Source: Escherichia phage dhabil. From it: a DNA stretch of 64,000 nucleotides. The stretch lies in sequence record MN850621.1; one strand, written 5' to 3'. The number at the start of each line of letters is the position of its first letter. Within the stretch, counting starts at the first letter, position 1. The translations under genes were made by a program, and so were the position numbers. This document shows positions 2,485 to 56,068 of the stretch, in pieces. Under the pieces are notes generated by a model, which saw only the letters and a program-made list of their open reading frames with translations, was not told where the DNA came from and did no database searches.

Positions 2485-3170
2485 TACCAGCCCTCCATAG
2501 GGAATTCCAGATATACTTGAGCATTAACGCGGATTTCATTTGTAATCTTTTTAACACGGTCGGTATTACGAGACACACGACCAAACCAGCGCCATCCGTT
2601 ACTTACTGCACGGGAACCTGTATGCCATGTCTGCCAATCAAACTGGAGCAATGTACGGTCAGGAGCATCCCACTTGGTTAATTCATTAGACTCAATTTTT
2701 TCCAGAACTTCTTTATGCCACTGGCGATAGATAAGTTCGCCATCAGGAATCTGGCTAAATTGTGCAGTTCCGGTTGCAAAATAAGTAGGACACACATCAG
2801 CGTTAACAAGACCAAGAATATGTTCAGAATGGTATCGAGGGTTATCATAATCAGGTTGCCCTGCAGTAATAAAGTGTTGACCAACCGGAATATCCGGGCG
2901 TGGTACATCATCATGGTGATAACCTGGGATAGCAGGATACCAACCAGGCATCAGCATATGAACCCGAGAATCAAATACAACCTGGTCGGTGTTCCAATCA
3001 TCCGGCAGACTCATTATAAAGCTACGAGTAATAGGGCCACCATTATCAAAAGCGAAAGCCAATGAGCTGTTGAAGAACATAGTTTCGTTTTTGATTTTAT
3101 CGTTAGAAATTTTACCAGCGAAACCGCCTACTGCACGAGCTTGAGAATTAAAAGTTTTTGGGCTGTTCAT
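2484..3170 (-). CDS. hypothetical protein
   Basis: 228 aa ORF with SD TGAGGAAAATATT-ATG; no family recognised from sequence. Confidence 0.6.
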   Translation of the reverse strand: MNSPKTFNSQARAVGGFAGKISNDKIKNETMFFNSSLAFAFDNGGPITRSFIMSLPDDWNTDQVVFDSRVHMLMPGWYPAIPGYHHDDVPRPDIPVGQHFITAGQPDYDNPRYHSEHILGLVNADVCPTYFATGTAQFSQIPDGELIYRQWHKEVLEKIESNELTKWDAPDRTLLQFDWQTWHTGSRAVSNGWRWFGRVSRNTDRVKKITNEIRVNAQVYLEFPMEGW

Positions 3171-3180
3171 AATATTTTCC

Positions 3181-3411
3181 TCAGAAGCAAGTATTAACTT
3201 TACCAGTTGTGCTTACACATGTGTTACCGAGCTGAACACCTAAAGTACCATTAGGATTCATATGGAGATTATTACCGATCTTAACCGATGTACCATCTTT
3301 ACTGACAACGATTGAGGATTCAACTTGTGTTTCGTCTCCAACATCAACAATAAAAGGAACTGCAGCTAAAGCAACCAAGCTCAGGGCTAAAACACTCATG
3401 ATGGCTTTCAT
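3181..3411 (-). CDS. small secreted/periplasmic protein (signal peptide)
   Basis: Start taken at internal ATG after GGAG SD (MKAIMSVLALSLVALAAVPFIV…); conserved leader cassette upstream. Confidence 0.5.
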   Translation of the reverse strand: MKAIMSVLALSLVALAAVPFIVDVGDETQVESSIVVSKDGTSVKIGNNLHMNPNGTLGVQLGNTCVSTTGKVNTCF

Positions 3412-3476
3412 TTTATTCTCCAATTCACTCATTTGTTTTGATAGGTCTATAATAACATATCTTACGAGAATGTATA

Positions 3477-3689
3477 TTACTTTTTGTTGAAAAAGTACAT
3501 TTTACCTTTAGGGGATAAGGATACACGAAGTGCATTACCGATACCAACCGAACATTTAACCAGGTCAGCAGATTTCAATTCACCAAATGCTTGACGAAGG
3601 TCACCGTCACGAGTGTTAACCATCAGACATTTAGCACCAGCTGCACGAACTTCGTTTAACATGTTGATTGCTTGGTTAGAAAGTTTCAT
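3477..3689 (-). CDS. hypothetical small protein
   Basis: Start at ATG 6 nt after GGAG in the conserved leader (MKLSNQAINMLNEVRAAGAK…); the track ORF extends further 5' into the leader. Confidence 0.45.
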   Translation of the reverse strand: MKLSNQAINMLNEVRAAGAKCLMVNTRDGDLRQAFGELKSADLVKCSVGIGNALRVSLSPKGKMYFFNKK

Positions 3690-3720
3690 TTTATTCTCCA
3701 TTTCACTCTGTTGTTTTGAT

Positions 3721-3755
3721 AGGTCTATAGTATCACACCTATAGACCTTGTACAC
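3721..3755 (-). promoter_or_regulatory. early promoter with perfect 10-bp stem-loop (PeSL-like cassette)
   Basis: Minus-strand -35 GTGTAC (3750-3755), -10 TACTAT (3727-3732); inverted repeat aggtctatag (3721-3730) / ctatagacct (3739-3748). Confidence 0.55.
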
Positions 3756-3767
3756 TGTTTTATGCAA

Positions 3768-4727
3768 TTATTTTTCGAAAGGACGAATTAAATGTTGATT
3801 ACGCTTAAACCGGTTGATGTAGTCACTTTCACCTAGGGTCCTATACATATTCACTACAGCTTGGTAGTTTTCCCAGGCATACTCACGGAACCAACCTGAA
3901 GTGATTGAGGTGCACACTTTCTCAAGAGCCATATAGAAACTTGTGGCCGCTGGGATATTAAAGTCATTAGGAACCTGCGAACGCTCTAGAGCAAGTACAC
4001 ATGCTTCTTCATAAACCCCTGCCAGTTTAATAGCTTCAGGCAAAGCTTCAAACTTCTCACGAGAGGTCATGACTTCAGAACCATCTTTCATATAAAAGGT
4101 ATACGCTGGGCGTCCGGCTAATGCCACAGCTTCATGAATAGAGTCGTGGTCTAATGTATAGATGGTATCATTAAAGAACGATGATTTGTTTACATCTAAT
4201 TTAGGATGAGAATAGCTCAACGTTTCTTTCTGACGTTGCAGCATGATTTCTTGGAGCTCTTCATTCAAGGTTACACCTTTATTACGAAGGTATTTGATGT
4301 GGGACATCGTCTTCAAAAAGAAAGGGTTGTTCTTCAAATAACGATGGCTCATTTTGATGGCCAGACAGATATCAGGCGTGGCCCAATAGAAACCCGTCAT
4401 CCGATCTTTCTTAATATGTGTTTTAGCATAATTCAGAAGGCGGTAGCTTGAGGTGAAATCCTCATCTTGGAGTTCGCCGGTAATTTCACGTACGTTAGTC
4501 AAGGCGCGGACGATATAAGCTTCAAAATAGGTTTCTTTACCGTTGTGCATGCATTTAAAAGCCTGGACGTCAGGGTTGTCTACGTGTACATGGGCGCCAA
4601 ACATCTGTGCTTTAAAATTATTCCATGACCCCTGGTCGGCAATAAAATCCCAATCAGAATTTTCGATATACTTACTTTCAATCAGACCAGCGTGGTGCAG
4701 TGCACGAGAACCAATAACTAGCATCAT
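3768..4727 (-). CDS. hypothetical protein (319 aa)
   Basis: Long ORF with SD GAGGAAAATATT-ATG; no confident family assignment. Confidence 0.65.
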   Translation of the reverse strand: MMLVIGSRALHHAGLIESKYIENSDWDFIADQGSWNNFKAQMFGAHVHVDNPDVQAFKCMHNGKETYFEAYIVRALTNVREITGELQDEDFTSSYRLLNYAKTHIKKDRMTGFYWATPDICLAIKMSHRYLKNNPFFLKTMSHIKYLRNKGVTLNEELQEIMLQRQKETLSYSHPKLDVNKSSFFNDTIYTLDHDSIHEAVALAGRPAYTFYMKDGSEVMTSREKFEALPEAIKLAGVYEEACVLALERSQVPNDFNIPAATSFYMALEKVCTSITSGWFREYAWENYQAVVNMYRTLGESDYINRFKRNQHLIRPFEK

Positions 4728-4740
4728 AATATTTTCCTCA

Positions 4741-4908
4741 TTAATAAAGACGAGTTACTTCATATTTACCCAGTTCAGATTTTTTTGCTTCAATACGCGT
4801 TGCGGCTAGATTAGCAGCCTCTAGTGAAGAAAATTGGACCACTTGGGAAGTATTCTGCCTTACGCCACCTTGTGGGTGAGTAACAAAAACAATAAGAACA
4901 TTATACAT
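4741..4908 (-). CDS. hypothetical small protein (55 aa)
   Basis: Below the ORF-track size cutoff; found by manual translation (MYNVLIVFVTHPQGGVRQNTSQVVQFSSLEAANLAATRIEAKKSELGKYEVTRLY), SD TGAGGAAAATATT. Confidence 0.35.
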   Translation of the reverse strand: MYNVLIVFVTHPQGGVRQNTSQVVQFSSLEAANLAATRIEAKKSELGKYEVTRLY

Positions 4909-4929
4909 AATATTTTCCTCAGAGTAAAC

Positions 4930-5169
4930 TTAAATTTCAGCAACGTAATCGTTATGCAATTCCCACATATCATCAGAATTATTCTTAATGATAGGAATTA
5001 TCTCATTAGAGATTTCTTCGGCATAAGGGTCGTTGATACAGTGAGCGTCTTCAAAACGAACACCATAATCAGACTTCTTATAGGCAAAGCCATAAATCTT
5101 TTTAAACTTGGCACGACTAATGCGTACCGGCTCATCAGACTTATCAGACAGTGGAGAGTAATACCACAT
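4930..5169 (-). CDS. hypothetical small protein
   Basis: 79 aa ORF with SD AGGAG 6 nt upstream of ATG. Confidence 0.45.
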   Translation of the reverse strand: MWYYSPLSDKSDEPVRISRAKFKKIYGFAYKKSDYGVRFEDAHCINDPYAEEISNEIIPIIKNNSDDMWELHNDYVAEI

Positions 5170-5213
5170 AATGTTCTCCTCATGTTTGTGTAAGGTAATA
5201 GTAACACAAGTTT

Positions 5214-5564
5214 TTAGAGTTGTACATCACTTCTGCAATATTCTAAAAATAATTTATCGCTGTCTACTGTATCCCAACGCCGCCAAGATGGATTCCAGAC
5301 CAGAGCGTTGTCACCACAATCATTGAGCTTAAAATGGTCGTAGTACATGGCTATGTGTCTAGTCTCGTCACCGGAGAACCCTAGTATAGGCTCGCCGTGG
5401 GTATGATACATATGATGGTGCATTGAGAGGTCGCACTTATAAAACATCTCACGTTTACCACGAACGAACAAGAAAGCTTGCCCATTCATATAGAATTCTT
5501 TATCTGTTTTCAAAAGATATTTGAATACTGAATCTTTGTGCATAAGTCCTCCTACCACATCCAT
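5214..5564 (-). CDS. hypothetical His/Cys-rich protein
   Basis: 116 aa ORF (…CDLSMHHHMYHTHGEP…); alternative start at 5543 has the stronger SD (AGGAGGA). Confidence 0.5.
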   Translation of the reverse strand: MDVVGGLMHKDSVFKYLLKTDKEFYMNGQAFLFVRGKREMFYKCDLSMHHHMYHTHGEPILGFSGDETRHIAMYYDHFKLNDCGDNALVWNPSWRRWDTVDSDKLFLEYCRSDVQL

Positions 5565-5573
5565 GTGGCTAAA

Positions 5574-5801
5574 TTATTTTCCTAACGAAATACGAGTAGG
5601 TTTTTTACCAAAGTATTCTTCATAAGAACCATCTAAACGACCTGCTTTAGACCGGCAATATGAATCATACTTTTTATAATAGGCCATCTCAGTATTATAA
5701 CGTGGGTGTCTATCAGCCATAATAATACTTAACGGCCAACCTTTGGCATAATCGCGAAGACCGTTTATTTTATGAATGTATCTTTTCTTTAATTTTAGCA
5801 T
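5574..5801 (-). CDS. hypothetical small protein
   Basis: 75 aa ORF in a tightly packed minus-strand operon. Confidence 0.4.
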   Translation of the reverse strand: MLKLKKRYIHKINGLRDYAKGWPLSIIMADRHPRYNTEMAYYKKYDSYCRSKAGRLDGSYEEYFGKKPTRISLGK

Positions 5802-6019
5802 GAGCTTGGGTACCAGATTTTACCATCGGAGCGAGCAACGAAGGTACGACCAGCTTCTTCACCATAACAAGAGCTATTCAGCCAATCTTCAAGACGAACT
5901 TCACCATCATAATCATCAAGCTCAACACCAAAATCCTGAGCAGAAGCCATATCTTTTACTTTCTTATACAGCGCAGCCAGTTCAAGAGCTGCTTTTTCTA
6001 ATTCATTAATATTAGACAT
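5795..6019 (-). CDS. small acidic protein, paralog 5 of the C-terminal W-x-x-SS-C family
   Basis: 74 aa, ends …KIWYPSSC; member of the tandem array. Confidence 0.55.
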   Translation of the reverse strand: MSNINELEKAALELAALYKKVKDMASAQDFGVELDDYDGEVRLEDWLNSSCYGEEAGRTFVARSDGKIWYPSSC

Positions 6020-6028
6020 TTTATCACC

Positions 6029-6241
6029 TTAGCAAGACATAGAGGATGTAAACCAGAAACCTTCACCATCTGGGATACCGTAATCATCACGGACCCATTC
6101 GTAATCATCATATTCCGGATTCTTTGGGGAAATGTATTGTCCACGGCCGGAAACATGGAACTCTTCACCTGTTTCGTCAGCCACGGACTGACCTTTACGT
6201 ACTAATTCACGGATTTGTTTTTCAATTTCATCAATAGTCAT
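6029..6241 (-). CDS. small acidic protein, paralog 4 of the C-terminal W-x-x-SS-x-x-C family
   Basis: 70 aa, ends …GFWFTSSMSC; preceded by ggtaataaaATG-type RBS. Confidence 0.55.
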   Translation of the reverse strand: MTIDEIEKQIRELVRKGQSVADETGEEFHVSGRGQYISPKNPEYDDYEWVRDDYGIPDGEGFWFTSSMSC

Positions 6242-6250
6242 TTTATTACC

Positions 6251-6448
6251 TTAGCATTCGTAAGAGGAGGACACCCAAGAGGTACCACTAATAGTAATAC
6301 AACCGTTATAAAGCGTTATATGTCGTTCTAAGTCACGAGCACCATCAATATAGATATCAGCTTCTTCGCGTTCTTCTTTACAAATTTGAATAACGTTTTC
6401 AATTGCCGCAGCGGCAGTTCGGATTGCACAATCTAATTCACGAGACAT
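6251..6448 (-). CDS. small acidic protein, paralog 3 of the C-terminal W-x-x-SS-x-x-C family
   Basis: 65 aa, ends …TSWVSSSYEC. Confidence 0.55.
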   Translation of the reverse strand: MSRELDCAIRTAAAAIENVIQICKEEREEADIYIDGARDLERHITLYNGCITISGTSWVSSSYEC

Positions 6449-6457
6449 AATATTTCC

Positions 6458-6739
6458 TTAACATTCAGAAGAAGAGGACACCCAACCGCCAGTTGCGAGG
6501 TCAGTTGTATAGTCATGAGTATTAACAATAGCCCATTCAGGATGACCATCTTCTTCCCAATGGGCAAGGTCAGCTTTCAAGGCGCCAGGAGAATAATAGT
6601 CACCGCCCATACCGCGAGCAGGGTATATATTAAAATGAGTCTCATATTTGTCTGCAATTTCCTCGGCACGACGAATAGCTTCATGAATTTCTTTTACTGC
6701 GGCCAGAAGCTCTGGATGGTTATGATTATCATTCATCAT
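6458..6739 (-). CDS. small acidic protein, paralog 2 of the C-terminal W-x-x-SS-x-x-C family
   Basis: 93 aa, ends …GGWVSSSSEC. Confidence 0.55.
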   Translation of the reverse strand: MMNDNHNHPELLAAVKEIHEAIRRAEEIADKYETHFNIYPARGMGGDYYSPGALKADLAHWEEDGHPEWAIVNTHDYTTDLATGGWVSSSSEC

Positions 6740-6748
6740 AGCTTTTCC

Positions 6749-7039
6749 TTAGCACATTGCCGAAGAGGAGACCCAGGCACCAACTGTAACGACGCCATTT
6801 TCAACTTCACCGCCATTGTTTTCAATTTCATCTTTAAACCACTGGGAGCATTCATAACCAACAGGGTAGTAGGTACGTCCTGAGCCATAATCACCTGTTC
6901 CGAATTGAATACCGTACTTATCGGCAATAGCTTCACATTTGGATTCGATGATATCTACTTTACCGAGCAGGGCATAGATAGCTTTTTCTGCAGATTTCTC
7001 GTCGTTGTATTCAGGGATTTCAATTTCAATTTTATTCAT
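6749..7039 (-). CDS. small acidic protein, paralog 1 of the C-terminal W-x-x-SS-x-x-C family
   Basis: 96 aa, ends …GAWVSSSAMC. Confidence 0.55.
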   Translation of the reverse strand: MNKIEIEIPEYNDEKSAEKAIYALLGKVDIIESKCEAIADKYGIQFGTGDYGSGRTYYPVGYECSQWFKDEIENNGGEVENGVVTVGAWVSSSAMC

Positions 7040-7389
7040 GATTTACATTCCTTAATAAAGGTTTCAAGGTCATTACGTTTGGTTTGTTTTACATACTCAT
7101 TATAATTAGCCATCTCTAAAGCATATCTCTTACGGATGGGAGCATTCAAAGCATTTGTATGGCAAATATCATACACGAGAGGGATAAAATAAGCCACGAC
7201 AGCCGGAGCAATTATCATATAGAAACCCATCTCAATAGGCATGACTCCTTCGATTGCAGCCATAACTGTGGTCATTACCAGACCAACCAGACCGCCGAGC
7301 ATACCTGTGACAATTCCCGTGAATAAGGAAATAGCAATATCATATTCAGCCAATTGATAAACATGCGATGAAAGACTAGGCCGTTCCAT
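7036..7389 (-). CDS. hypothetical membrane protein with C-terminal FIxECK motif
   Basis: Start at internal ATG (MERPSLS…) preceded by SD AGAGG; multiple hydrophobic helices; C-terminus …NDLETFIKECKS. Confidence 0.5.
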   Translation of the reverse strand: MERPSLSSHVYQLAEYDIAISLFTGIVTGMLGGLVGLVMTTVMAAIEGVMPIEMGFYMIIAPAVVAYFIPLVYDICHTNALNAPIRKRYALEMANYNEYVKQTKRNDLETFIKECKS

Positions 7390-7918
7390 TTTGGACCTCT
7401 TTAGCGTATTCACGGCATTCAGCAATAAAGCGATTAAGCTTCCGTTGTTGTTTACGACTTTCTAATGTGTACTCAGCAGTTAAGATACCAAGCTCGGCTT
7501 TATCATAATTTTTAATATCAGTGTAAGATGGTCGACGGTCGACCATTCCAAATACATCACCATTTTCTAAAGCCACATAGCATACTAAATGGTAATCATC
7601 GTCTGCCATATTAAGAAGCACGCAATCATTGCTCTCATTTAAAGAATATACTGAATAACGTAGTCCAGCGAATTCCACTCGTTGAATAGCCAGATTTACG
7701 TCAATAATTTCCAAAGCATCTTCAAAAGAAAGGTCTTCAGCTAAAGCAAAAATAAAAGGTAATTTGGTAGTATCGCCACGGCTAGATGTTCTGCTTAAGA
7801 AATCGTTTGAATAGCCTAGGTCTTGGCGAATTCTATAAAGAACTGAATTGGTTTCATGGGAAAGACCACTATTTTTAAACCAATCAATATTTGATATAAG
7901 GTTATCATATAAACTCAT
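7376..7918 (-). CDS. hypothetical protein with FIAECR motif near C-terminus
   Basis: 180 aa ORF, SD GGAGGAGAGGAGAATATT-ATG. Confidence 0.55.
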   Translation of the reverse strand: MSLYDNLISNIDWFKNSGLSHETNSVLYRIRQDLGYSNDFLSRTSSRGDTTKLPFIFALAEDLSFEDALEIIDVNLAIQRVEFAGLRYSVYSLNESNDCVLLNMADDDYHLVCYVALENGDVFGMVDRRPSYTDIKNYDKAELGILTAEYTLESRKQQRKLNRFIAECREYAKEVQNGTA

Positions 7919-45773: not shown

Positions 45774-47057
45774 ATGGCAAAGATTAACGAATTACTGCGC
45801 GAGTCAACAACTACTACCAGCAACTCATTGGGTCGCCCTAATCTTGTTGCTTTGACCCGTGCTACCACTAAACTAATTTATCGCGATATCATCGCTGAAC
45901 AACGTACAAACCAACCTATCGCTGCGTTGTATGGTGTCAAATATCTTACCCCTGATAATGAATTCAGTTTCCAAACCGGTGCAGTTTATGGTGGTGAAGT
46001 TGGTTCTAAAGACCGTGAAACTATCCCGGAACTCACAGATAAAGCCCAGGCGATTGCCAAGGGTGACTACTTTAAGTATCAGAATGTGGTTTATAAGGCT
46101 CTTCAAGCAAGCCCACTCGCATCCACTAGCGCTACAGAATTGGCCGATGCTCTTCAAGAAGGTTTGGTGTCATTAACGTGTCGTTTGGTTCCTGATGCAG
46201 CCCATACCACTAAATTTGAAGAGAGTGATGTAGAAATCTCTGATGCTGTATTCCAGGTTAATAAATGGAATGCCCCTGTTAAGACCCGTAAATTGAAGAC
46301 TGCTTTGACCGTAGAATTAGCACAGGATATGGAATCAAATGGCTTCGACGCCCCTGCATTCTTAGAAGACCTCCTGGCTACAGTAATGGCAGATGAAATT
46401 AATAAAGATGTTCTGCAATCCCTAATAACCGTATCCAAACGCTATAAAGTTACGGGTGTATCTGATAATGGCATCATCGATTTGACTTATGATAGTGCTC
46501 CAGAATCTGCACGTAAACTTTATGAAATTGTTTGTGAGATGAATTCTGAAATCCAGAAAACTACTTCTTATTCGGGTACGTTTGTTGTGGCTTCAAGTCG
46601 TGTGGCTGCAATGCTTGCAGGTTCTGGCTGGTTAAAACATAGACCTGAAGATAATAATTGGCTCCCAGAAACGGCCTATGGTTATTTGTTGAATGGATTA
46701 CCTCTGTTCTGTGACGTTAACAGCCCATTGGATTATGTTATCGTAGGTGTTAAAGAGAACTATGGTGGTAATGAAGTTGTCGGTTCTATTTTCTATGCCC
46801 CATATACAGAAGGCCTGGATTTAGACGACCAAGAACACGTTGGTGCTTATAAGGTTATTGTCGACCCGGATTCATTACAGCCTTCTATTTCTCTGATGGT
46901 TCGTTATGCACTGTCCGCTAACCCGTACACCGTAGCTAAAGACGATAAAGAAGCTCGTGTTATCGATGCAACCAATATGGATTTAATGGCTGGTCAGAGT
47001 AATATGTCTTATCTGCTTGGTGTTAAACTTCCAGCAATTATTTACGAGGCTGATTAA
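45774..47057 (+). CDS. 24: capsid vertex protein gp24 (ortholog copy)
   Basis: 427 aa, same length as T4 gp24 and high identity (MAKINELLRESTTT.SNS.GRPNLVALTRATTKLIY…). Confidence 0.9.
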   Translation: MAKINELLRESTTTTSNSLGRPNLVALTRATTKLIYRDIIAEQRTNQPIAALYGVKYLTPDNEFSFQTGAVYGGEVGSKDRETIPELTDKAQAIAKGDYFKYQNVVYKALQASPLASTSATELADALQEGLVSLTCRLVPDAAHTTKFEESDVEISDAVFQVNKWNAPVKTRKLKTALTVELAQDMESNGFDAPAFLEDLLATVMADEINKDVLQSLITVSKRYKVTGVSDNGIIDLTYDSAPESARKLYEIVCEMNSEIQKTTSYSGTFVVASSRVAAMLAGSGWLKHRPEDNNWLPETAYGYLLNGLPLFCDVNSPLDYVIVGVKENYGGNEVVGSIFYAPYTEGLDLDDQEHVGAYKVIVDPDSLQPSISLMVRYALSANPYTVAKDDKEARVIDATNMDLMAGQSNMSYLLGVKLPAIIYEAD

Positions 47058-48337
47058 TGTCTAAGATTATAGACCTAATTAAAGAATCCACATTGACGGC
47101 TGCCAACTCGGTTGGCCGTCCTGCTCTTCTTTCATACACCCAAGCAACTAATAAACGAATCTTTAAAGCCCTAGTTGCTGAACAAAAAACAAGCCAACCT
47201 GTTGCTGCTCTGTACGGGGTTCGTGTACTTAACCCTGACGACAAAATGACTTATCTTGGTGGCGCTACATTTGCAGGCCAGATTGGTATGTCGGAACGTG
47301 AAAATATTCCTGAATTTACCGATTCGTCTACAGCTTATGCAGCCGGCGATATGTTCCAGTTTGAAAGTGTAGTGTTTAAAGTTCTAGAAGCATCTCCTTT
47401 CGCCGGAACCACGGAAACCGACCTCGGTGAAGTTATTTCTGAAGCAGTGGCCGCTGGGCATATTCGTATGGTATCAGATGCTGCTATTACTTCTAAATTC
47501 GAACAAGGCCATCCTGAAATTGCTGAAGCAGGCTTCCGTATTGACAAATGGCAATCTGAAGTTAAATCACGTAAACTGAAAACTTCATTGACAGTCGAAT
47601 TGGCCCAAGACCTAGAATCAAACGGGTTTAATGCTCCTAATTTCATTGAAAATCTGCTAGGCATTCAAATGGCAGAAGAAATTAATAAGGACGTATTACA
47701 GTCATTAATTACAGTGAGTTCTCGTTTTAAAGTCCAGGGTGTTTCTGAAAAGGGCGTATTGGACCTTACTAACCCACGTTATGATAATGCCCAGGACCGT
47801 GCTCGTACATTATATTATTACATGTGTGAGATGAACTCTGCCGTCCAACGTCAAACTTCTTTCGCTGGGACTTATGCCGTAGCTAGTTCTCGTTGTGCTG
47901 CTATTCTCGCTGCATCCGGTTGGGTTGAGAAAAAGGAAGACCAAGATGAATTGGCTTATGGTGTATTAAAGAATGGTCTACCTCTTTATGCCGATATGAA
48001 TAGTCCATGTGATTATGTTATTGTTGGTGTAAATGCTCAGATGGGTGAAGGACAGACGGTCGCATCTTTATATTATGCGCCTTATACGGAAGGTTTGGAT
48101 GTGGTTGATGAAGAAGGTGATACTTCAGTAGGTGAATTTAAGGTTATTGTTGACCCAGAAAGCTTACAACCTACAGTAGCATTGCTTGCTCGTTATGCAT
48201 TGACTGCAAACCCTTATACCGTCGCTAAGGACGATAAAGAAGCCCGCATTATTGATGGTTCTGATATGGACAAAATGGCTAACCAAAGCCAGTTGAGTTC
48301 TTATCTCGGTGTTAAACTTCCACCACTAGAAAAATAA
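47057..48337 (+). CDS. capsid vertex protein gp24 paralog (second tandem copy)
   Basis: 426 aa, roughly half identical to the upstream gp24 copy by eye; ATGA-coupled to it. Confidence 0.8.
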   Translation: MSKIIDLIKESTLTAANSVGRPALLSYTQATNKRIFKALVAEQKTSQPVAALYGVRVLNPDDKMTYLGGATFAGQIGMSERENIPEFTDSSTAYAAGDMFQFESVVFKVLEASPFAGTTETDLGEVISEAVAAGHIRMVSDAAITSKFEQGHPEIAEAGFRIDKWQSEVKSRKLKTSLTVELAQDLESNGFNAPNFIENLLGIQMAEEINKDVLQSLITVSSRFKVQGVSEKGVLDLTNPRYDNAQDRARTLYYYMCEMNSAVQRQTSFAGTYAVASSRCAAILAASGWVEKKEDQDELAYGVLKNGLPLYADMNSPCDYVIVGVNAQMGEGQTVASLYYAPYTEGLDVVDEEGDTSVGEFKVIVDPESLQPTVALLARYALTANPYTVAKDDKEARIIDGSDMDKMANQSQLSSYLGVKLPPLEK

Positions 48338-48338
48338 A

Positions 48339-48363
48339 AGGGACCGTAAGGTCCCTTTATTGT
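48339..48363. terminator. bidirectional rho-independent terminator between the gene 24 paralog (+) and rnlB (-)
   Basis: Hairpin gggacc-GUAA-ggtccc flanked by A-rich 5' and T-rich 3' tracts. Confidence 0.65.
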
Positions 48364-49371
48364 TTATTTGGATACTAATTCAATCCATACAGCTCGTAGC
48401 GTATCTTTAACGCACTCAATAAGCTGCTTTTTAACTTCAACAGGGTTTTCTGCATCGGTTAATTCTAATTCTTCGCGGGCTGCCTCTTCCAAAATATCTT
48501 GGACCGTCAGTCCCATTACCTTTCCAAAATCTTTAGGTGATACTTCACCAATCTTACTGATAACGTTGTTAATACGGTTAACAGTCACATAATCTGTGAA
48601 TTGTTGTAATAAATCTAAATCGTCTTGGGATAATACTACTGCAACTTTAATAGGCTTATCAGATTTTTTCTTCTCGCTGAATTTAGAGTTCTTGCATTTA
48701 ATTGCTACACGATTTCCATTAGGCAGCCAAAGCGGATAACAAGGTTTTAATACGTACCCTTCAGCGGTAAATACTTCGCCTTTTGCTTCGGCATTCCACA
48801 CATGAGCATTAGCTTCGGCTAGCCCGACATTATCTACTGTAAAATTATAATCAGGAAGGACGGAATCTAAATCATTTGGCAATTTAATAAGGTCTTCAAA
48901 TTTACCACGACCTAAAAGTGGTGCCATTTTAAATTTGAACGTCTTACAAAATGATTCCATCATATAATCGTCGACATAAGTCACATCGCCGCTTTCGGTG
49001 GTAACAATAATGTCAAATACATAAAAATCTTTATCACCGTAATCAACGTTCTTCTGAATGCCTGTTCCAGCGAATTCACCGAAAACTTGATAAGATACGG
49101 CTGCTGAAGTTTCCATAATATCTTGTATAGATTTAATAGAATCAGCGTAGTTCTTAAGTACAATTTCATAACCATAGAAATCTTCAGCAGGGAGAATTGG
49201 GCCAGTGCGCTTGGCGCATGTGACTGCGTCACGTTCTATGATTAAACTAAAGTTGGTTCCATGAATCTTCTCACGTGCTACCCATTCACCACCAGTCAAA
49301 CCATTGGTACGGAGTTTTTCGATAAACTTACTGTTGTAGTGGTTTTCCAGACTGCTATATTTCTTGAACAT
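48364..49371 (-). CDS. rnlB: RNA ligase 2 (Rnl2)
   Basis: 335 aa, high identity to T4 Rnl2 ([20 protein letters not shown]…, nucleotidyltransferase motif KIHGTN). Confidence 0.92.
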
Positions 49372-49485
49372 AAATCACCATAATAAATATAATTAAATAG
49401 AAGAGCTAGTAATCTTCTGTCACCAAGCCAAATGGTTTAACGGAAGGACCTAGACCCATTATAACACACCTAAATTTAAAGCATA

Positions 49486-49737
49486 TTACTTTAGACCAAA
49501 AACGCGCTTTGCGCTGACCTTTTTGTTGTTTAATCTTTTACGATACACAACTTTCTCTTTTGCTTTAAACTTGGCCTTAGCATTCTCAACTTCGGCCCAG
49601 GCTTTAGCCATATCTCTGGCAGTTCCGCCAATCTTTTTAGCAATATCAATAAAATTCATACCCGATTCATGTAAAAAATGTACTTTAATCTTATCCATAA
49701 CAGTTCTCTTGTGATTTGAACTATTCAATAGTAACAT
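49486..49737 (-). CDS. hypothetical small basic protein, possible DNA-binding (24.2/24.3 region)
   Basis: 83 aa ORF; start may instead be the internal ATG at 49698 (MDKIKVHF…). Confidence 0.4.
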   Translation of the reverse strand: MLLLNSSNHKRTVMDKIKVHFLHESGMNFIDIAKKIGGTARDMAKAWAEVENAKAKFKAKEKVVYRKRLNNKKVSAKRVFGLK

Positions 49738-49767
49738 GAGAATTTTAACTTGTAAACAGGAGATTTT

Positions 49768-51273
49768 ATGTCAGACAATCCATTATACGGGCATGATGGT
49801 AGAGGCCACTTTAGAGGCGTATCATTAGTAGAAGTTCCACAGAACAAATCATTGGAATTTGTGGACATACTCACTAGTGAAAGCACCTTAGACCCTACTA
49901 TGCTAGATTCTTCTCAAAGCTATGGACTTGAATTTATAAAACAAGCTTCTAGGGAAGGCGCGTTGGCCCATTTAGGTATAACTAATGAGATGCTAACACC
50001 TGGTACTGAAGGTCCACAAGGCCCTAAAGGAGACCCAGGGCCGCAAGGTATTCAAGGTAACCCCGGTCCTAAAGGAGAAAAGGGCGAACCAGGACCAGTA
50101 GGTCCAGAAGGTCCTAAAGGAGACCCGGGTTCACCAGGAAAAGAAGGCCCTCAGGGTTTACAAGGGGCCCAAGGAGAAGTAGGACCGCAAGGACCACAAG
50201 GTCCTATAGGCCCGGCAGGTTTGGTGTGGAAGGGAGCCTGGGATGAATCTACCCAATACTCTAAAGACGATGCAGTTGGATACCAGGGAGCTTCTTATTT
50301 TTGCATCAGTTCTAATACAGGAACAATACCTCCTAGCGAAGGAGTTTGGGCACTATTGGCTAATATCGGTGCACCAGGTCCTCAAGGACCAACAGGCCCA
50401 ACCGGCCCTCAAGGTCCACAAGGCGCGCCAGGCCAAGATGGTAATGGGTTTATCTGGGCCGGAAACTGGGCCCTTGGTTCGTCTTATTATATAAACGATT
50501 TGGTCCAGTGCGAAGGGTCTTCTTGGATTTGTATCCAGGATAATATAGCAAATAATGATAGTTATCCTGGGAGTGGAGACCTGTGGGCCGATTATTGGAA
50601 TTTATTTGTAAAAGAAGGGCGTCCAGGAAATCCCGGAGAAGATGGTGCACCTGGAGAGCAAGGTGCCCAAGGACCGCAAGGCGACCCAGGTCCTAAAGGT
50701 GAAAAGGGTGAACCCGGGCCACAAGGTATTCAAGGTCCTATAGGTCCTGCAGGTGCGCCAGGCAAAGATGCAGTATTTGATGTCGATTCTTTAACCCAGT
50801 CTCAATTAAAATCTTTATATGATAAACTTTTCCCATTCTATCCACCTAGATATTGGAAAGGCTCTTTAAGATTTGATAAGCCTCTGAACACTTCAGAGTG
50901 GAAGGAAATACGTTTGTGGGACCTTAATATGGTTCTTCATGTTCGCATGTACTCATCTGTAGGCATCCATATAAGGGCTACTAATGCAGGTCTTACTAAT
51001 AGGCTTGATATTAAAAGATTTACCAACTATGAAAACGGAATAGAATGTGCCAACTGGAGTAATGTGTTGTGGTCATCATCTCCTGAATTATTCGACGATT
51101 TGGCTTATTCTAGTGCAAGACAATTTAACCGTTACGAAATATTTGACCGTGATACTAGAAAATACTACACTGTATCTGTGTTTATTGTAGGCGGCCCTCT
51201 TAATACGACTACAGATATCCCTGTTGAAGTTTTATTTTCTGTCGAAGACCATACCAATATGAGCACGTTTTAA
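49768..51273 (+). CDS. collagen-like protein with two chitin-binding-type (CBM5/12-like) modules and a C-terminal globular domain
   Basis: 501 aa; three Gly-X-Y blocks (about nt 50002-50194, 50347-50424, 50623-50769) separated by W…Y…D.V.Y.G..Y.C modules; SD AGGAG. Confidence 0.8.
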
Positions 51274-51282
51274 GGAGGTTAA

Positions 51283-52149
51283 ATGATTGTACTTAAAATA
51301 AATGGTCCTAGATATGAATTGGTTGGCAGGACAGTAACCTTTTATACCGGGTTTGTATTACCACCCGGTTCTACTCTAGATGACGTAGAAATTAATTGGT
51401 ATAAAAACGATGTCCATATTCCACAACTTCCTACCGAAGACCCTTTTGAATTAAATTTATGGGAAGTAGGATTCCCGGCGGCAGGAACATTTTATGCGAC
51501 CATAACAAATAAGAAAAGTGGTGAAATAACAAAGAGTAACGAAATAGAACTTGAAATAGGTACCCTTCCAAGAAGAATAGTCCTAGATATAAACTCTAGG
51601 GAATTAATATATGCCAATATAGGAGAAACAGTTTCACTTCGCCCGTCGTGTAGAGTGGAACCCACTTATGCCGAAAGAATTTGTAGATGGTATAGAGATG
51701 GAGTAGAATTATCTAAAGACGAAGATATTGATATATTAATAGACGACCCTGATAAATTTGGAGATTATACATTAAAATCTATAGCGACCTGCGAAGGAGC
51801 ATATATCCCTGCTTCTGAAGAACTTTTAGTTGAAATAAAACCTAGGGATGATGTATTGCAGTGCCCTTTCATATATGATAACGACCTTAATGCTTATTTA
51901 CCATATGGCGGTGGAAGAAATGAATCGTATATGTGGATAGGTTGGTGGGTATGGGACGAAATAAGAGAAGCCGTTAGATTGGGAGAAGATTGGACTTTGG
52001 ATATAAACAACAGCCCATACAAGTATAAATGTGAGTTACAAAAAGTAGCCGACCTTTTGTCTAAGTATCCTGAAGTAGAGATACAAGAGTCGAGAAATGG
52101 CTACATCTTAGAAAGGAAAGACTTAGTTTACGTCCCTCCTGAAAAATAA
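51283..52149 (+). CDS. Hoc-like capsid decoration protein paralog (novel N-terminal domains + Hoc capsid-binding C-terminus)
   Basis: 288 aa; C-terminal ~75 aa (YMWIGWWVWDEI…YPEVEIQESRNGYILER) matches the C-terminus of the Hoc protein on the opposite strand; coupled to the collagen gene (TAAGGAGGTTAAATG). Confidence 0.7.
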   Translation: MIVLKINGPRYELVGRTVTFYTGFVLPPGSTLDDVEINWYKNDVHIPQLPTEDPFELNLWEVGFPAAGTFYATITNKKSGEITKSNEIELEIGTLPRRIVLDINSRELIYANIGETVSLRPSCRVEPTYAERICRWYRDGVELSKDEDIDILIDDPDKFGDYTLKSIATCEGAYIPASEELLVEIKPRDDVLQCPFIYDNDLNAYLPYGGGRNESYMWIGWWVWDEIREAVRLGEDWTLDINNSPYKYKCELQKVADLLSKYPEVEIQESRNGYILERKDLVYVPPEK

Positions 52150-52153
52150 TAAA

Positions 52154-52172
52154 GGGCCTACGGGCCCTTTTT
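52154..52172 (+). terminator. rho-independent terminator after the Hoc-like paralog
   Basis: Hairpin gggcc-UACG-ggccc followed by ttttt. Confidence 0.6.
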
Positions 52173-52337
52173 GGTATGTAAAATTTTATCTATAGTAGCT
52201 ATTATCCCAAAAAAGGAACTAATGCATGTGAAAAGAGCCAATATAGAAGCAAACAACCCACTAGTTAATGAAATTAACGAAAACAAAAACAGCACTATAA
52301 AGAAAACCAACAACCCTATATCTTTGTTAAATTTCAT
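52158..52337 (-). CDS. small hydrophobic membrane protein (59 aa)
   Basis: Below the track cutoff; manual translation MKFNKDIGLLVFFIVLFLFSLISLTSGLFASILALFTCISSFFGIIATIDKILHTKKGP; SD AGGTGG 4 nt upstream of ATG. Confidence 0.4.
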   Translation of the reverse strand: MKFNKDIGLLVFFIVLFLFSLISLTSGLFASILALFTCISSFFGIIATIDKILHTKKGP

Positions 52338-52404
52338 ATATCCACCTATTAAAAATTATTCGTCAATAACTTAATCTCCCGAAACATTATCATAAACTAA
52401 ATAA

Positions 52405-52418
52405 GGGCCTTGCGGCCC
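52405..52418 (-). terminator. hairpin terminator downstream of hoc
   Basis: gggcc-GCAA-ggccc followed on minus strand by ttattt. Confidence 0.45.
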
Positions 52419-52422
52419 TTTA

Positions 52423-53835
52423 TTAATAAACGTAATCGTAAATAATTCCAGCATCCAAAGCGGTTCTGTGAATAATTCTACCATTACGAGATTCCTGTAC
52501 ATCAACCTCAGGATAATCGGCTACCATTTTTTGAAGGGTATAACGATGGAGATAATATTCACTATCAGGTTCGTCAGTTTTCCAGTCTTTGCCTTCAAGG
52601 GTCATTTTCTGAATTTCGTCCATAACCCACCAACCACACCAAATATAAGCTGAATTACGAACTGGTAGCGGATGAACGTAAGGTAGTTCGCCCTCTGGTT
52701 CAGGAGCGACTTTAGCCGTAATTGTTACATTACCGGATTTTGTGACGGTCACAGAATTATAGTCGGTAGCCGAAACCACAACAGAAACTTCAATAACCTG
52801 TGAACCTTCAGCGCTTGTGTCAATTACTAATGTATCCGTAGCACCCACAACAGGTGAACCATCTTTCTTCCAAGAATAAGCAAAAGTAGCACCACTAGGC
52901 GCACCGACTACCGTGGCTTTAAAAGAAGCCGGGATTCCTTCAGAGACAGTAATAGAAGCAGGCGTTAAATTAACAGAAACACCTGCCATAGTCTTTTTAG
53001 TAATTGTTACACTTCCTGTTTTGGTAACGGTTAAATCATTATAATCCGTACCTTTTAGGAGTACCGAAACTTCAATAGAGTAAGAACCTATTGTAGACGT
53101 ATCAACAGCAAGAGTATTACTGCTTTCGCCCGGAATAATAGAACCGTTTTTCTTCCAAGAATAAGTTGCATTTACGCCGGAAGGAGCGCCGACTACATCC
53201 GCTTTAAACTGTGCAGATGAGTCTTTCTCTGTACTAATTGAGGCCGGTGTTAAAGTAACAGAAACACCTGATATAGTTTTCTTAACAAAAGTTACCGCAG
53301 CACCTTTAGTAGCGGTACCCGGGTTATATTCAGGGGCGGTAACAGTAACTTCACAGTTCAACGTGTAATTTGCTTCCGCGGCTTCGGTTACAGTAATAGT
53401 TTTACCAGTTTGGCCAGAGATTACGCTGGTGTTACGTTTCCAAACATAAGCAATTGTTGCACCTGCAGGTGCACCCGTCACGTTAGCAGTAACAACTTGA
53501 GATTGGCCAACTTCTTTAGAAACAGAAATAGGGTCCAAAGCCAAAGAAATAGACATGGTCTTATTAGCTACGGTAACTTCAAAAGTATCTTCAGCTACCT
53601 CAGGTTCGCCTTCAGCCGGAGTAGAAGTTGCTACTACTTTTAAAACTTTCTTACCTACAGGTGCAGCACCTGTATATTTCAAAACATTGGTTGCTTCTGG
53701 ATTAGAAGCACCATCAATAGACCATACATATGTAATGGTTCCTTCTACAGCTGCACCTGTTGCGGTAGCAGTGTAGTTAGCACTTTCGCCTATTTTAATA
53801 GACGCTGTGCCGGCTATACTTACAGTAAAAGCCAT
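52423..53835 (-). CDS. hoc: highly immunogenic outer capsid protein Hoc (four Ig-like domains + capsid-binding domain)
   Basis: 470 aa; C-terminus …PEPEGELPYVHPLPVRNSAYIWCGWWVMDEIQKMT.EGKDWKTD… closely matches T4 Hoc; four internal Ig-like repeats versus three in T4. Confidence 0.9.
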   Translation of the reverse strand: MAFTVSIAGTASIKIGESANYTATATGAAVEGTITYVWSIDGASNPEATNVLKYTGAAPVGKKVLKVVATSTPAEGEPEVAEDTFEVTVANKTMSISLALDPISVSKEVGQSQVVTANVTGAPAGATIAYVWKRNTSVISGQTGKTITVTEAAEANYTLNCEVTVTAPEYNPGTATKGAAVTFVKKTISGVSVTLTPASISTEKDSSAQFKADVVGAPSGVNATYSWKKNGSIIPGESSNTLAVDTSTIGSYSIEVSVLLKGTDYNDLTVTKTGSVTITKKTMAGVSVNLTPASITVSEGIPASFKATVVGAPSGATFAYSWKKDGSPVVGATDTLVIDTSAEGSQVIEVSVVVSATDYNSVTVTKSGNVTITAKVAPEPEGELPYVHPLPVRNSAYIWCGWWVMDEIQKMTLEGKDWKTDEPDSEYYLHRYTLQKMVADYPEVDVQESRNGRIIHRTALDAGIIYDYVY

Positions 53836-53844
53836 ATTTTACCC

Positions 53845-54516
53845 TTATTTTAAAGTTACGAAAGATGAATTACGCGTTTCACGTACTAATACTGAACCAT
53901 TACGATTGATGTAATAAATCAGACTGAATAGTGTTTGGTGGGCAGATGGGTGTTGGAAATCTTTAGGGCGTTCTTTCCAATCAGGGGTTTCGGTAATCCA
54001 TTGATAAATCCACCAAGGCACAGTACAATACCCTGGGTTTTTACCAATGAGTAAAAGATTAGGGCTAAAGTTTTCAGGTAAAGAGAATACAGGTTTTTCA
54101 GATTCAATAACCTCGGCCACAGCCTCTTTGAATTTCTCTTCGACAAACGGGACGTCTTCTTCAATAATCTCTACCTTAGGAAGTTCGGCTACCTCAATAA
54201 CTTCAACTACCGCTTCAGGGGCATCAAATAATAGGGTAGCCTCTTCTTTGGCGGGTTCGGCACCATCAACAAATTCGTTAGCGCCTGTGAGTTCGTCGGC
54301 GGCATCAATCAAATCAGAAATAGACAAACCTTCGGTTTCTGGAAGTGGTTCATCAGCCAGGGCTTTAAGGCCTTCAGAGATATCGATAATCAAATTATCA
54401 AACGAACGGGTTTTCTTAAGTTTCAAACCGAATTGTTCGCCGTATTCGATTAACTTAGCTTTAGCTTCTTTTTTATCTTCGAGTGCACGAAGCTCTTCAA
54501 TATATTGAGTATCCAT
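53845..54516 (-). CDS. inh: Inh-like protein (inhibitor of prohead protease), acidic
   Basis: 223 aa acidic protein in the T4 inh position between hoc and uvsW. Confidence 0.6.
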   Translation of the reverse strand: MDTQYIEELRALEDKKEAKAKLIEYGEQFGLKLKKTRSFDNLIIDISEGLKALADEPLPETEGLSISDLIDAADELTGANEFVDGAEPAKEEATLLFDAPEAVVEVIEVAELPKVEIIEEDVPFVEEKFKEAVAEVIESEKPVFSLPENFSPNLLLIGKNPGYCTVPWWIYQWITETPDWKERPKDFQHPSAHQTLFSLIYYINRNGSVLVRETRNSSFVTLK

Positions 54517-54535
54517 AATTAGTCTCTTGTTGGTG

Positions 54536-54557
54536 TATAAATATAATTATATTTATA
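54536..54557. promoter_or_regulatory. divergent late promoters: TATAAATA (+, 54536-54543) for uvsW and TATAAATA (-, 54550-54557) for inh
   Basis: Exact late consensus on both strands in the 55-nt intergenic region. Confidence 0.5.
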
Positions 54558-54571
54558 ACTGAGAATTAGAC

Positions 54572-56068
54572 ATGCAAATTCAAGTACATTTTGATAATTT
54601 TAGTCATGTTCGTGTTGAGTGTGATGAATCCACCTTCTACGAACTCAGAGACTATTTCAGCTTTGAAGCTGATGGATATAAATTTAACCCTAAATACCGT
54701 TACGGGCAATGGGACGGGAGAATTCGTCTTCTAGATTATAACCGTAAACTTCCGTATGGTCTAGTCCCACAAATTAAAAAATTCGCTGACCAGTTTGAAT
54801 ACTCTCTTTGGATAGACCCACGTATTCTTGAACAGGAAGATATTTCTCGCGAAGATTTTGACTCATGGGTGGCTTCACAAGAGATTTATTCAGGTTCTAC
54901 CAAGATTGAGCCACATTGGTACCAGAATGAAGCCGTATACAACGGTCTGACAAAACGTCGTGCAATTCTGAATTTACCTACATCCGCAGGTAAATCATTG
55001 ATTCAGGCGCTCCTGAGTCGATATTACGTTGAGAACTATGAAGGTAAAATTCTTATCTTAGTTCCTACTACTGCACTTGTCGACCAGATGATTAATGACT
55101 TCATCGATTATCGTTTGTTCCCTAAAGCCGCTATGCTTGGTATTCGTTCAGGTACTGCTCGTGATTCTGATGCAATGATTTATGTTTCAACTTATCAAAC
55201 GGCTATTAAACAACCTAAAGAATGGTTTGCTCAGTTTGGTATGTTTATGAATGACGAATGCCATTTGGCAACAGGTAAATCAATTTCTACCATCATCGAA
55301 GGCCTTACCAATTGTATGTTTAAATTCGGTTTGTCCGGTTCTTTAAAAGACGGTAAAGCCAATTTAATGCAATATATGGGTTTGTTTGGTGATGTGTTTA
55401 AGCCAGTATCCACTTCACAGTTAATGGAAGAAGGACAGGTAACTGATTTAAAAATAAACAGTATTTTCCTTCGTTATCCGGATGAATTCACTGTTAAGAT
55501 GAAAGGTAAAGATTACCAATCAGAAATTAAAGTCATTACTAAGGCTACTCGTCGTAATAAATGGGTTGCTAATTTAGCTGTTAAACTCGCTAAGAAAGAA
55601 GAGAACGTATTCCTGATGTTTAAAAACATCGAGCACGGTAAAACTCTTTTTGAAATGGTTAAAGAGCAACATAAAGAAGTTTATTACGTATCAGGTGAAG
55701 TTAATACAGAAACTCGTAATGCTCTTAAAGTAATGGCGGAAAATGGTAAGGGTATTATTGTTGTGGCAAGTTATGGTGTGTTCTCTACTGGTATTTCCGT
55801 TAAGAACCTCCACCATGTAATATTTGCACATCCGGTAAAATCCAAAATCATTGTACTCCAGACAATAGGTCGTGTGCTCCGTAAACATGCTTCTAAATCA
55901 ACAGCACAAGTTTGGGACATTATAGACGACATGGGCGTTAAGCCTAAATCAGCAAATGCTAAAAAGAAATATGTTCATTTGAATTATGCATTAAAACATG
56001 CCTTAGAACGTATTCAACGTTATGCTGACGAGAAATTTAATTACGTAATGAAACAGGTGGATTTATGA
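54572..56068 (+). CDS. uvsW: UvsW DNA/RNA helicase
   Basis: 498 aa, high identity to T4 UvsW (…VHF..FSHVR..C.ESTF.ELRD.FSFEADGY.FNP…, Walker A PTSAGKS). Confidence 0.95.
   Translation: MQIQVHFDNFSHVRVECDESTFYELRDYFSFEADGYKFNPKYRYGQWDGRIRLLDYNRKLPYGLVPQIKKFADQFEYSLWIDPRILEQEDISREDFDSWVASQEIYSGSTKIEPHWYQNEAVYNGLTKRRAILNLPTSAGKSLIQALLSRYYVENYEGKILILVPTTALVDQMINDFIDYRLFPKAAMLGIRSGTARDSDAMIYVSTYQTAIKQPKEWFAQFGMFMNDECHLATGKSISTIIEGLTNCMFKFGLSGSLKDGKANLMQYMGLFGDVFKPVSTSQLMEEGQVTDLKINSIFLRYPDEFTVKMKGKDYQSEIKVITKATRRNKWVANLAVKLAKKEENVFLMFKNIEHGKTLFEMVKEQHKEVYYVSGEVNTETRNALKVMAENGKGIIVVASYGVFSTGISVKNLHHVIFAHPVKSKIIVLQTIGRVLRKHASKSTAQVWDIIDDMGVKPKSANAKKKYVHLNYALKHALERIQRYADEKFNYVMKQVDL

Follow-up and report, generated by a model that had tools for sequence, protein, structure and literature searches.

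A locus of Escherichia phage dhabil raises the question of why a gene for a collagen-like fibre protein should lie directly beside a second, short copy of hoc. Hoc is the standard dispensable Ig-like capsid decoration protein and the workhorse of T4 display and vaccine engineering. The stretch of DNA analyzed here, referred to as the window, comprises 64,000 nucleotides (nt) of phage dhabil (sequence record MN850621.1). Over the region concerned it is 100% identical to phage dhaeg (MN850609; Straboviridae, Tevenvirinae, Dhakavirus, T4-like), by whose name the locus is called below, and ~97% identical to CLB_P2 and Ec2-ASingh. A first-pass annotation made from the sequence alone had described three open reading frames (ORFs), namely a canonical hoc on the minus strand and, on the plus strand, a collagen-like gene encoding 501 amino acids (aa) followed by a gene for a 288-aa protein with a Hoc-like C-terminus. 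The ORF list reproduces all three at the same coordinates. The 501-aa product is called the fibre protein here, the canonical protein Hoc1, and the second, short Hoc is named Hoc2.

The new finding is that the fibre and hoc2 genes are a conserved pair. Parts of this picture are already on record: the JS10 and IME08 entries list two 'hoc' genes and a 'tail fiber-like protein', and that of Aeromonas phage 65 lists 'hoc-2, second copy of the hoc gene' beside a protein 'similar to collagen-like proteins'. Extra short Hocs occur in Serratia phage Muldoon and Enterobacter phage PG7, with a capsid-binding domain said to 'functionalize the capsid surface' (PMC10385173). The first-pass annotation had put the module forward as previously undescribed. 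That does not hold for the second hoc, which is annotated in dhaeg, JS10, IME08 and phage 65 and has short counterparts in the same paper; for the pairing itself, no paper linking a collagen-like gene to a second hoc was found in the searchable open literature.

A conserved fibre–hoc2 gene pair

Searches by tblastn with the fibre N-terminus return 25 phage records, and those with the first Ig-like domain of Hoc2 (Ig1) return 23, compared with 1066 records that contain any Hoc. The two sets are near-identical and lie entirely within Straboviridae, and a tblastn search from the most divergent member returns to the same set. At least 14 intact, co-oriented pairs are present in at least six Straboviridae genera: Dhakavirus (dhaeg/CLB_P2, JS10/Esco_phi_B-01 and ABTNLsp5), Gaprivervirus (TH15), Gelderlandvirus (CGG4-1), Ishigurovirus (Aeromonas phage 65), Biquartavirus (AhFM11, and the related AS4) and Roskildevirus (Erwinia phages Cronus/IT22 and FBB1). 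Pantoea phage Phynn carries the pair as well. All intact pairs are adjacent and on the same strand, separated by gaps of 0–12 nt or joined by overlapping stop and start codons, as in the ATGA junctions of Aeromonas phages 65, AhFM11 and AS4. The pair is inserted between 24.3 and hoc, right after gene 24 (Cronus, FBB1), near NAMPT (Phynn), or beside tk at two genes from hoc-1 (phage 65). Canonical Hoc coexists with Hoc2 in most of the genomes.

Metagenomic contigs extend this distribution. Two of them (L016 and L017) have the reversed order, with a 195-aa hoc2 followed by the fibre gene; in another (L021) the pair abuts inh with no Hoc1 in between, and a further pair is found in L023. A T4-like contig of 118.9 kb (L022, Logan SRR10097265) carries a tandem fibre–Hoc2–fibre–Hoc2 arrangement at positions 3001–7467, in which each partner is ~48–49% identical to its counterpart in the other cassette. 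The second fibre protein of this contig is 586 aa long, and its collagen runs comprise 49 and 55 triplets.

The exceptions to the shared distribution of fibre and Hoc2 are decay remnants, found in AP1, PspYZU05 and IME08. AP1 retains only a 78-aa fibre stub, and in PspYZU05 a 49-aa fibre stub adjoins a 132-aa Hoc with the Hoc2-type signature. WG01, a close relative, has neither fibre nor hoc2. In IME08 (L003, positions 3380–3450), an internal in-frame deletion has left a 22-codon fibre remnant upstream of hoc2, which still supplies the hoc2 Shine-Dalgarno sequence. The first-pass annotation had named disruption of the collagen ORF in relatives as evidence that would count against the module, and IME08 shows just such a disruption. 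Since another GHDGRG fibre gene lies nearby in the same phage, right after 24b (L003, ~551–1935), the deletion indicates turnover and dispensability and does not refute the module. In the IME08 record, the N-terminal part of this second fibre gene is out of frame with its collagen part; a sequencing error, a pseudogene or a frameshift is possible. Taken together, pair conservation, co-loss and co-duplication strongly back the earlier proposal that the two genes form one module, and the conserved fibre–hoc2 cassette is well supported.

A 2-residue insertion and an RFKYxC signature, neither of them present in Hoc1, are common to the Hoc2 capsid-binding domains of every genus. This indicates that hoc2 is an old paralogue travelling with the fibre gene rather than a recent local duplication. 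Within Dhakavirus, capsid-binding domains are 89–95% identical among Hoc1 proteins versus 49–63% among Hoc2 proteins, which points to allele exchange, with different cassette alleles occupying the same site.

Conservation is uneven along both proteins, as seen in mean identities per domain across 11 aligned fibre/Hoc2 pairs. The fibre N-terminus averages 38%, with an invariant GHDG(R/L)G motif, and the distal head, which comes in at least two unrelated types, averages 23%. Phage fibres usually show this polarity, conserved proximally and variable distally. In Hoc2, mean identity is 35% for Ig1, 26% for the second Ig-like domain (Ig2) and 52% for the capsid-binding domain. Ig1 is present in all 11 proteins, and Ig2 has been lost twice, in Cronus (166 aa) and in the 195-aa protein of L016. 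Being distal and always retained, Ig1 is the obvious candidate socket for the fibre.

Hoc2 and the fibre protein

Membership of the Hoc family was defined by a C-terminal domain homologous to T4 Hoc residues ~281–376, including the Glu-Ser-Arg-Asn-Gly loop, and Hoc2 carries this domain. BLASTP aligns 71 aa of its C-terminus with Hoc1 at 46% identity (E 8e-18), phmmer aligns it with T4 Hoc chain 5vf3_Z (E 1.6e-14), and the protein matches phrog_1149, 'Hoc-like head decoration' (6.2e-43). An AlphaFold2 (AF2) model built from 10 sequences has a mean predicted local distance difference test (pLDDT) score of 85 and contains two Ig-like beta-sandwich domains, after which comes the C-terminal domain. 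The top Foldseek match of the model is the Ig domains of RB49 Hoc (3shs, 1.9e-12), and the Pfam Ig_2 match is weak (E 0.0068). BLASTP, phmmer, the PHROG profile and the predicted structure thus all bear out the Hoc-like C-terminus noticed in the first reading, and they mark Hoc2 as a genuine paralogue of Hoc.

Fokine et al. 2023 (PMC10385173) have listed which residues of T4 Hoc touch gp23 or stabilize the ESRNG loop. Of the 13 such residues mapped, Hoc2 retains 11, and it retains the ESRNG loop. In the phmmer alignment, T4 Hoc R300/Y304/W306/W309/W310/D313/Q354-Y360 are identical to Hoc2 R212/Y216/W218/W221/W222/D225/Q268-Y274, and of the listed residues only H299 (to G) and H295 (to Y) differ. 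With these contact residues kept, Hoc2 very probably retains the ability to sit at the centres of gp23 hexamers and would there be a competitor of Hoc1. Most of the gp23-contact residues of T4 Hoc are thus present in Hoc2. It differs from T4 Hoc and orthologues such as RB49 Hoc in its insertion and RFKYxC signature, in a longer beta1-beta2 loop, in having only one or two Ig domains, and in being always paired with a fibre gene.

The second Hocs of Muldoon and PG7 resemble Hoc2 in being an extra protein with a Hoc-type capsid-binding domain, and the Muldoon protein likewise combines two Ig domains with that domain (PMC10385173). Their placement in the Hoc2 lineage was considered and rejected, as neither is matched by Hoc2 Ig1 or the fibre N-terminus at tblastn sensitivity. 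In PG7, a GDSL lipase cargo is fused to the capsid-binding domain, whereas in the fibre–hoc2 cassette the cargo would be a separate polypeptide.

The architecture read from the 501-aa sequence, collagen blocks alternating with CBM5/12 modules, is confirmed by Pfam and by fold matches of the model. The fibre protein matches Collagen (PF01391) with E 8.8e-24 and 83.5 bits (cutoff 27.2) and CBM_5_12 (PF02839) in two stretches with E 1.9e-9 and 37.8 bits (gathering cutoff 26.2). Structure comparison of the models assigns both modules the CBM5/12 fold, and module 2 has a tandem-CBM12 structural match to a Vibrio chitin deacetylase. Knobs of the collagen-like tail fibres solved for Agrobacterium phages Milano and 7-7-1 are matched by the module models too. 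In the AF2 monomer model, the N-terminal domain is of low confidence, the collagen segments have pLDDT values below 50, and the C-terminal part is a short helix followed by a 10-strand beta-sandwich (pLDDT 70–83). Structure comparison found no close structural relative of this beta-sandwich.

A collagen triple helix rises 0.286 nm per residue. At this rate, the 51 Gly-X-Y triplets of the fibre protein would span about 44 nm as a triple helix.

The shaft is far more widespread than the ends of the protein. A full-length search of a 5.8-billion-protein index finds the collagen/CBM5/12 shaft in more than 3,500 database proteins, and only ~10 true full-length relatives stand out from this flood of collagen/CBM proteins. 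The C-terminal domain alone gives zero matches in the same index, and neither the N-terminal 78 residues nor the C-terminal 165 residues match a Pfam or PHROG family. The N-terminal domain family has 21 matches in 1.84 billion representative proteins, and the domain invariably forms the N-terminal end of a fibre of this kind. As side observations, two metagenomic proteins (P0133, 3157 aa; P0138, 3405 aa) each contain 8–9 repeats resembling fibre residues 24–65, and the GHDGRGxF motif resembles an NDGxGxFxD motif repeated throughout another protein (P0145).

The fibre protein had been called glycan-binding in the first reading. The CBM5/12 fold behind that label stands, and glycan binding itself is read from the fold alone. 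Because the shaft is common to thousands of phage tail-fibre and bacterial proteins, the CBM knobs may be structural, and glycan binding is only possible.

A proposed two-component head fibre and its alternatives

A mechanism can be proposed in which fibre and hoc2 make up a mobile, accessory two-gene cassette for capsid decoration. The C-terminal domain of Hoc2 would bind the centre of gp23 hexamers in competition with Hoc1, and its distal Ig1 would serve as the socket for the GHDG(R/L)G N-terminal domain of a trimeric collagen-like fibre. The triple helix of that fibre would be interrupted by the two CBM5/12-fold knobs. Its variable C-terminal head, possibly together with the knobs, would touch a ligand outside the phage, for instance glycans of the host surface or the environment. 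The outcome would be reversible adhesion of the head, as with Hoc, SPP1 gp12 and the phi29 head fibres, built here from two components. We infer display on the head alongside Hoc1, as the first-pass annotation had suggested, and the evidence leans, by a slim measure, towards a fibre that Hoc2 anchors and Ig1 docks. More tentatively, with confidence a little short of even, Hoc2 may be a dedicated adaptor and the GHDG(R/L)G domain its cognate plug. Fibres of ~50 nm with different heads would then be interchangeable, cognate pairs would diversify and duplicate together as in L022, and one trimer might gather up to three Hoc2 molecules of neighbouring hexamers.

Several points weigh against this mechanism. 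None of the 21 family matches is a fusion that joins the fibre N-terminal domain to a Hoc capsid-binding domain, and literature searches found no virion proteomics or imaging for either protein. A trimeric fibre on a monomeric Hoc is a mismatch of symmetry and stoichiometry that raises a question of its own. The mirror-tree correlation with the fibre N-terminus is higher for Hoc2 Ig1 than for the capsid-binding domain (r 0.57 versus 0.14), a weak value that is suggestive only, the pairs being co-inherited and non-independent. The conserved Ig1 residues W39, Y40, A66 and G68 are largely Ig-core positions and may reflect the fold rather than an interface. Neither dhaeg nor JS10 has a TATAAATA late promoter upstream of the fibre gene, and the strong terminator after 24b would limit late read-through into the dhaeg fibre gene.

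It is unlikely that the two genes function independently and merely share an accessory-gene hot spot, with the fibre serving as an auxiliary tail, baseplate or neck fibre and Hoc2 as a short Hoc that decorates the capsid alone. Such a reading draws on the matches of the fibre protein to 'tail fiber protein' families in PHROG and GenBank, which include phrog_5073 (7.5e-86) and many further 'tail fiber' PHROGs reached through the collagen/CBM shaft. The shaft is common to real tail fibres, including proteins with a T7 tail-fibre N-terminal domain and the fibres of Milano and 7-7-1. The hoc region also gains further paralogues that have no fibre, among them MN01's second Hoc and the long one of CGG4-1, and the second short Hocs of Muldoon and PG7 have no reported partner. 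Set against this, the genes stay adjacent and co-oriented in at least 14 pairs from at least six genera and at several sites, despite order reversal and tandem duplication, and wherever the Hoc2 lineage occurs, a GHDGRG fibre gene or a remnant of one is essentially always present. The fibre N-terminus is unlike known tail or baseplate attachment domains, and the gene neighbours are hoc-type or head genes, never tail-fibre or baseplate genes. A direct attachment of the fibre to the capsid, without contact to Hoc2, is quite improbable. In that arrangement, the fibre would bind through its own N-terminus, like SPP1 gp12, which forms a collagen-like trimer directly at hexamer centres, and Hoc2, co-expressed with it, would only set the occupancy of hexamer sites. 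This would remove the mismatch between a 3-fold fibre and a 1-fold Hoc, but two hexamer-centre binders would compete, and neither the constancy of Ig1 against the dispensability of Ig2 nor the presence of a separate, diverged Hoc2 for each duplicated fibre would be explained.

Expression signals bear on a further alternative, in which the dhaeg cassette has poor expression or no late expression, or its products are not virion components, being released at lysis, acting at the cell surface or belonging to a decaying locus. We consider this very unlikely as well. On its side stand the lack of an upstream late promoter in dhaeg and JS10, the terminator after 24b, the absence of the cassette from close relatives such as WG01, and the decay remnants in IME08, AP1 and PspYZU05. 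For dhaeg, a motif search agrees with the earlier remark that no late promoter precedes the collagen gene; the exact late promoters in the window serve gene 24a, uvsW and inh/hoc1. Late read-through from the gene 23/24 operon was considered for dhaeg and is unlikely given that terminator. Many fibre genes are preceded by a TGTAAA(C/T)A motif, which in dhaeg abuts the fibre Shine-Dalgarno sequence. It was rejected as a variant late promoter, as its opposite strand is the TTTACA −35 box of a divergent early-type 24.3 promoter (49756..49728). On the other side, both ORFs are intact and 97–100% conserved in dhaeg, CLB_P2 and Ec2-ASingh, the dhaeg cassette has a strong Shine-Dalgarno sequence and its own terminator, and the Hoc capsid-contact residues are preserved. 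Canonical late promoters, or a place in the late head operon, are also seen for homologous cassettes: ABTNLsp5 and Phynn have an exact TATAAATA at −42 and −75, respectively, and in Cronus/FBB1 the gene 23–24 late head cluster runs straight on into the cassette, on the late strand. Promoter sequence and position thus support late expression of the cassette family in relatives.

No described system in which a Hoc-family protein is stably paired with a separate fibre protein was found in literature searches, and the two-component head fibre proposed here differs from the known systems it resembles. SPP1 gp12, a collagen-like trimer dispensable for capsid stability and with a proposed adhesion role, is likened to the fibre by collagen character alone. 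It is small and binds the capsid directly, whereas an Ig adaptor is proposed here, and the much longer fibre bears CBM-fold knobs and a distal head. The phi29 gp8.5 head fibres are likewise trimeric, dispensable and thought to help cell-wall attachment, but their shaft is an alpha-helical coiled coil, they are fixed directly to quasi-3-fold positions, and neither Hoc nor collagen plays a part in them. The tail fibres of Milano (8fqc), 7-7-1 (9rkv) and PHROGs 5073, 819 and 366 have the same Gly-X-Y shaft with small beta-rich knobs. The fibre protein differs from them in its N-terminal domain, which is restricted to Straboviridae Hoc2 cassettes, and its partner is a head-decoration gene rather than a baseplate or tail gene.

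If Hoc2 is a true adaptor, T4-like capsids could carry long, exchangeable fibres of the receptor-binding type, beyond short strings of Ig domains. This would widen the known ways in which a phage head joins in adsorption, and it bears on how heads contribute to adhesion to hosts, mucus or particles. It would also account for a recurrent mis-annotation as 'tail fiber' within head-gene clusters, and it could provide a ready-made, non-covalent docking pair for capsid engineering.

Organization of the locus and neighbouring genes

The local gene order is gp24a, gp24b, rnlB (−), 24.3 (−), fibre (+), hoc2 (+), hoc1 (−), inh (−) and uvsW (+), and the coordinates of the features are collected in Table 1. 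The repeats and capsid-binding domain of the canonical Hoc are as the first reading had them. An Rfam scan of positions 48000–55000 gave no match.

Table 1. Features of the fibre–hoc2 locus and its surroundings, numbered from the first nucleotide of the window
Feature	Position	Strand	Remarks
Terminator-like hairpin	48337-48358		bidirectional, perfect 9-bp stem; between convergent 24b and rnlB
Fibre gene	49768..51273	+	501 aa; dhaeg_81; GenBank label 'hypothetical protein'
Fibre N-terminal domain	49768..50001	+	aa 1-78; GHDG(R/L)G (aa 8-13) invariant; candidate docking end
Collagen block 1	50002..50226	+	aa 79-153; 25 Gly-X-Y triplets
CBM5/12-fold module 1	50227..50361	+	aa 154-198; Pfam CBM_5_12 stretch aa 157-184; AF2 pLDDT 66-75; fold matches
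Collagen block 2	50368..50448	+	aa 201-227; 9 triplets
CBM5/12-fold module 2	50452..50610	+	aa 229-281; second Pfam stretch; AF2 pLDDT 77-88
Collagen block 3	50617..50769	+	aa 284-334; 17 triplets
Neck helix and distal C-terminal head	50776..51270	+	helix aa 344-354; beta-sandwich head aa 362-494, varies among relatives
Fibre–hoc2 junction	51271..51285	+	TAAGGAGGTTAAATG; fibre stop codon, Shine-Dalgarno, hoc2 start; in relatives, 9-12-nt gap or stop/start overlap
hoc2	51283..52149	+	288 aa; dhaeg_80; GenBank label 'head outer capsid protein'
Hoc2 Ig-like domain 1	51283..51561	+	aa 1-93; distal; AF2 pLDDT 88-95; proposed fibre-docking domain
Hoc2 Ig-like domain 2	51580..51843	+	aa 100-187; dispensable spacer
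Hoc2 capsid-binding domain	51871..52125	+	aa 197-281; alpha/beta in model; QESRNGY loop aa 268-274
Terminator-like hairpin	52151..52170		GC-rich, T-runs on both strands; closes the fibre–hoc2 operon
Terminator-like hairpin	52403-52420		after hoc1
hoc1 (canonical hoc)	52423..53835	-	470 aa; four tandem ~95-residue Ig-type repeats and capsid-binding domain
Late promoter	54550..54557	-	exact T4-type TATAAATA; upstream of inh (53845..54516, -) and hoc1

Upstream of the cassette, the window carries two paralogues of gp24, the head vertex protein, in tandem (45774–47057 and 47057–48337, plus strand) with an ATGA-type overlap; they correspond to 24a and 24b in JS10. A link between this duplication and the cassette was rejected, as WG01 has both gp24 copies and no cassette, and PspYZU05 has one annotated gp24 beside a cassette remnant.

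Between the terminator hairpins of hoc2 and hoc1 lies a 59-aa ORF (52158–52337, minus strand), whose predicted product is a very hydrophobic membrane protein with two helices and which has a GGTGGA Shine-Dalgarno sequence of its own. The dhaeg record leaves it unannotated, and CLB_P2 annotates the opposite strand. The ORF is kept in CLB_P2 and Ec2-ASingh and is 88% identical in IME341; JS10 lacks the ~270-bp insert.

Other Hoc proteins of the group vary in length. A distant Hoc of 397 aa (P0009, contig L015) has no GHDGRG fibre neighbour and is taken as an ordinary Hoc. MN01 encodes a second, very long Hoc of 944 aa (L018, 2488–5322), and CGG4-1 encodes a long Hoc of at least 900 aa besides its cassette (L004, 7515–10237). 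Among Dhakavirus relatives, Hoc1 has 282, 377 or 470 aa, corresponding to two to four Ig repeats.

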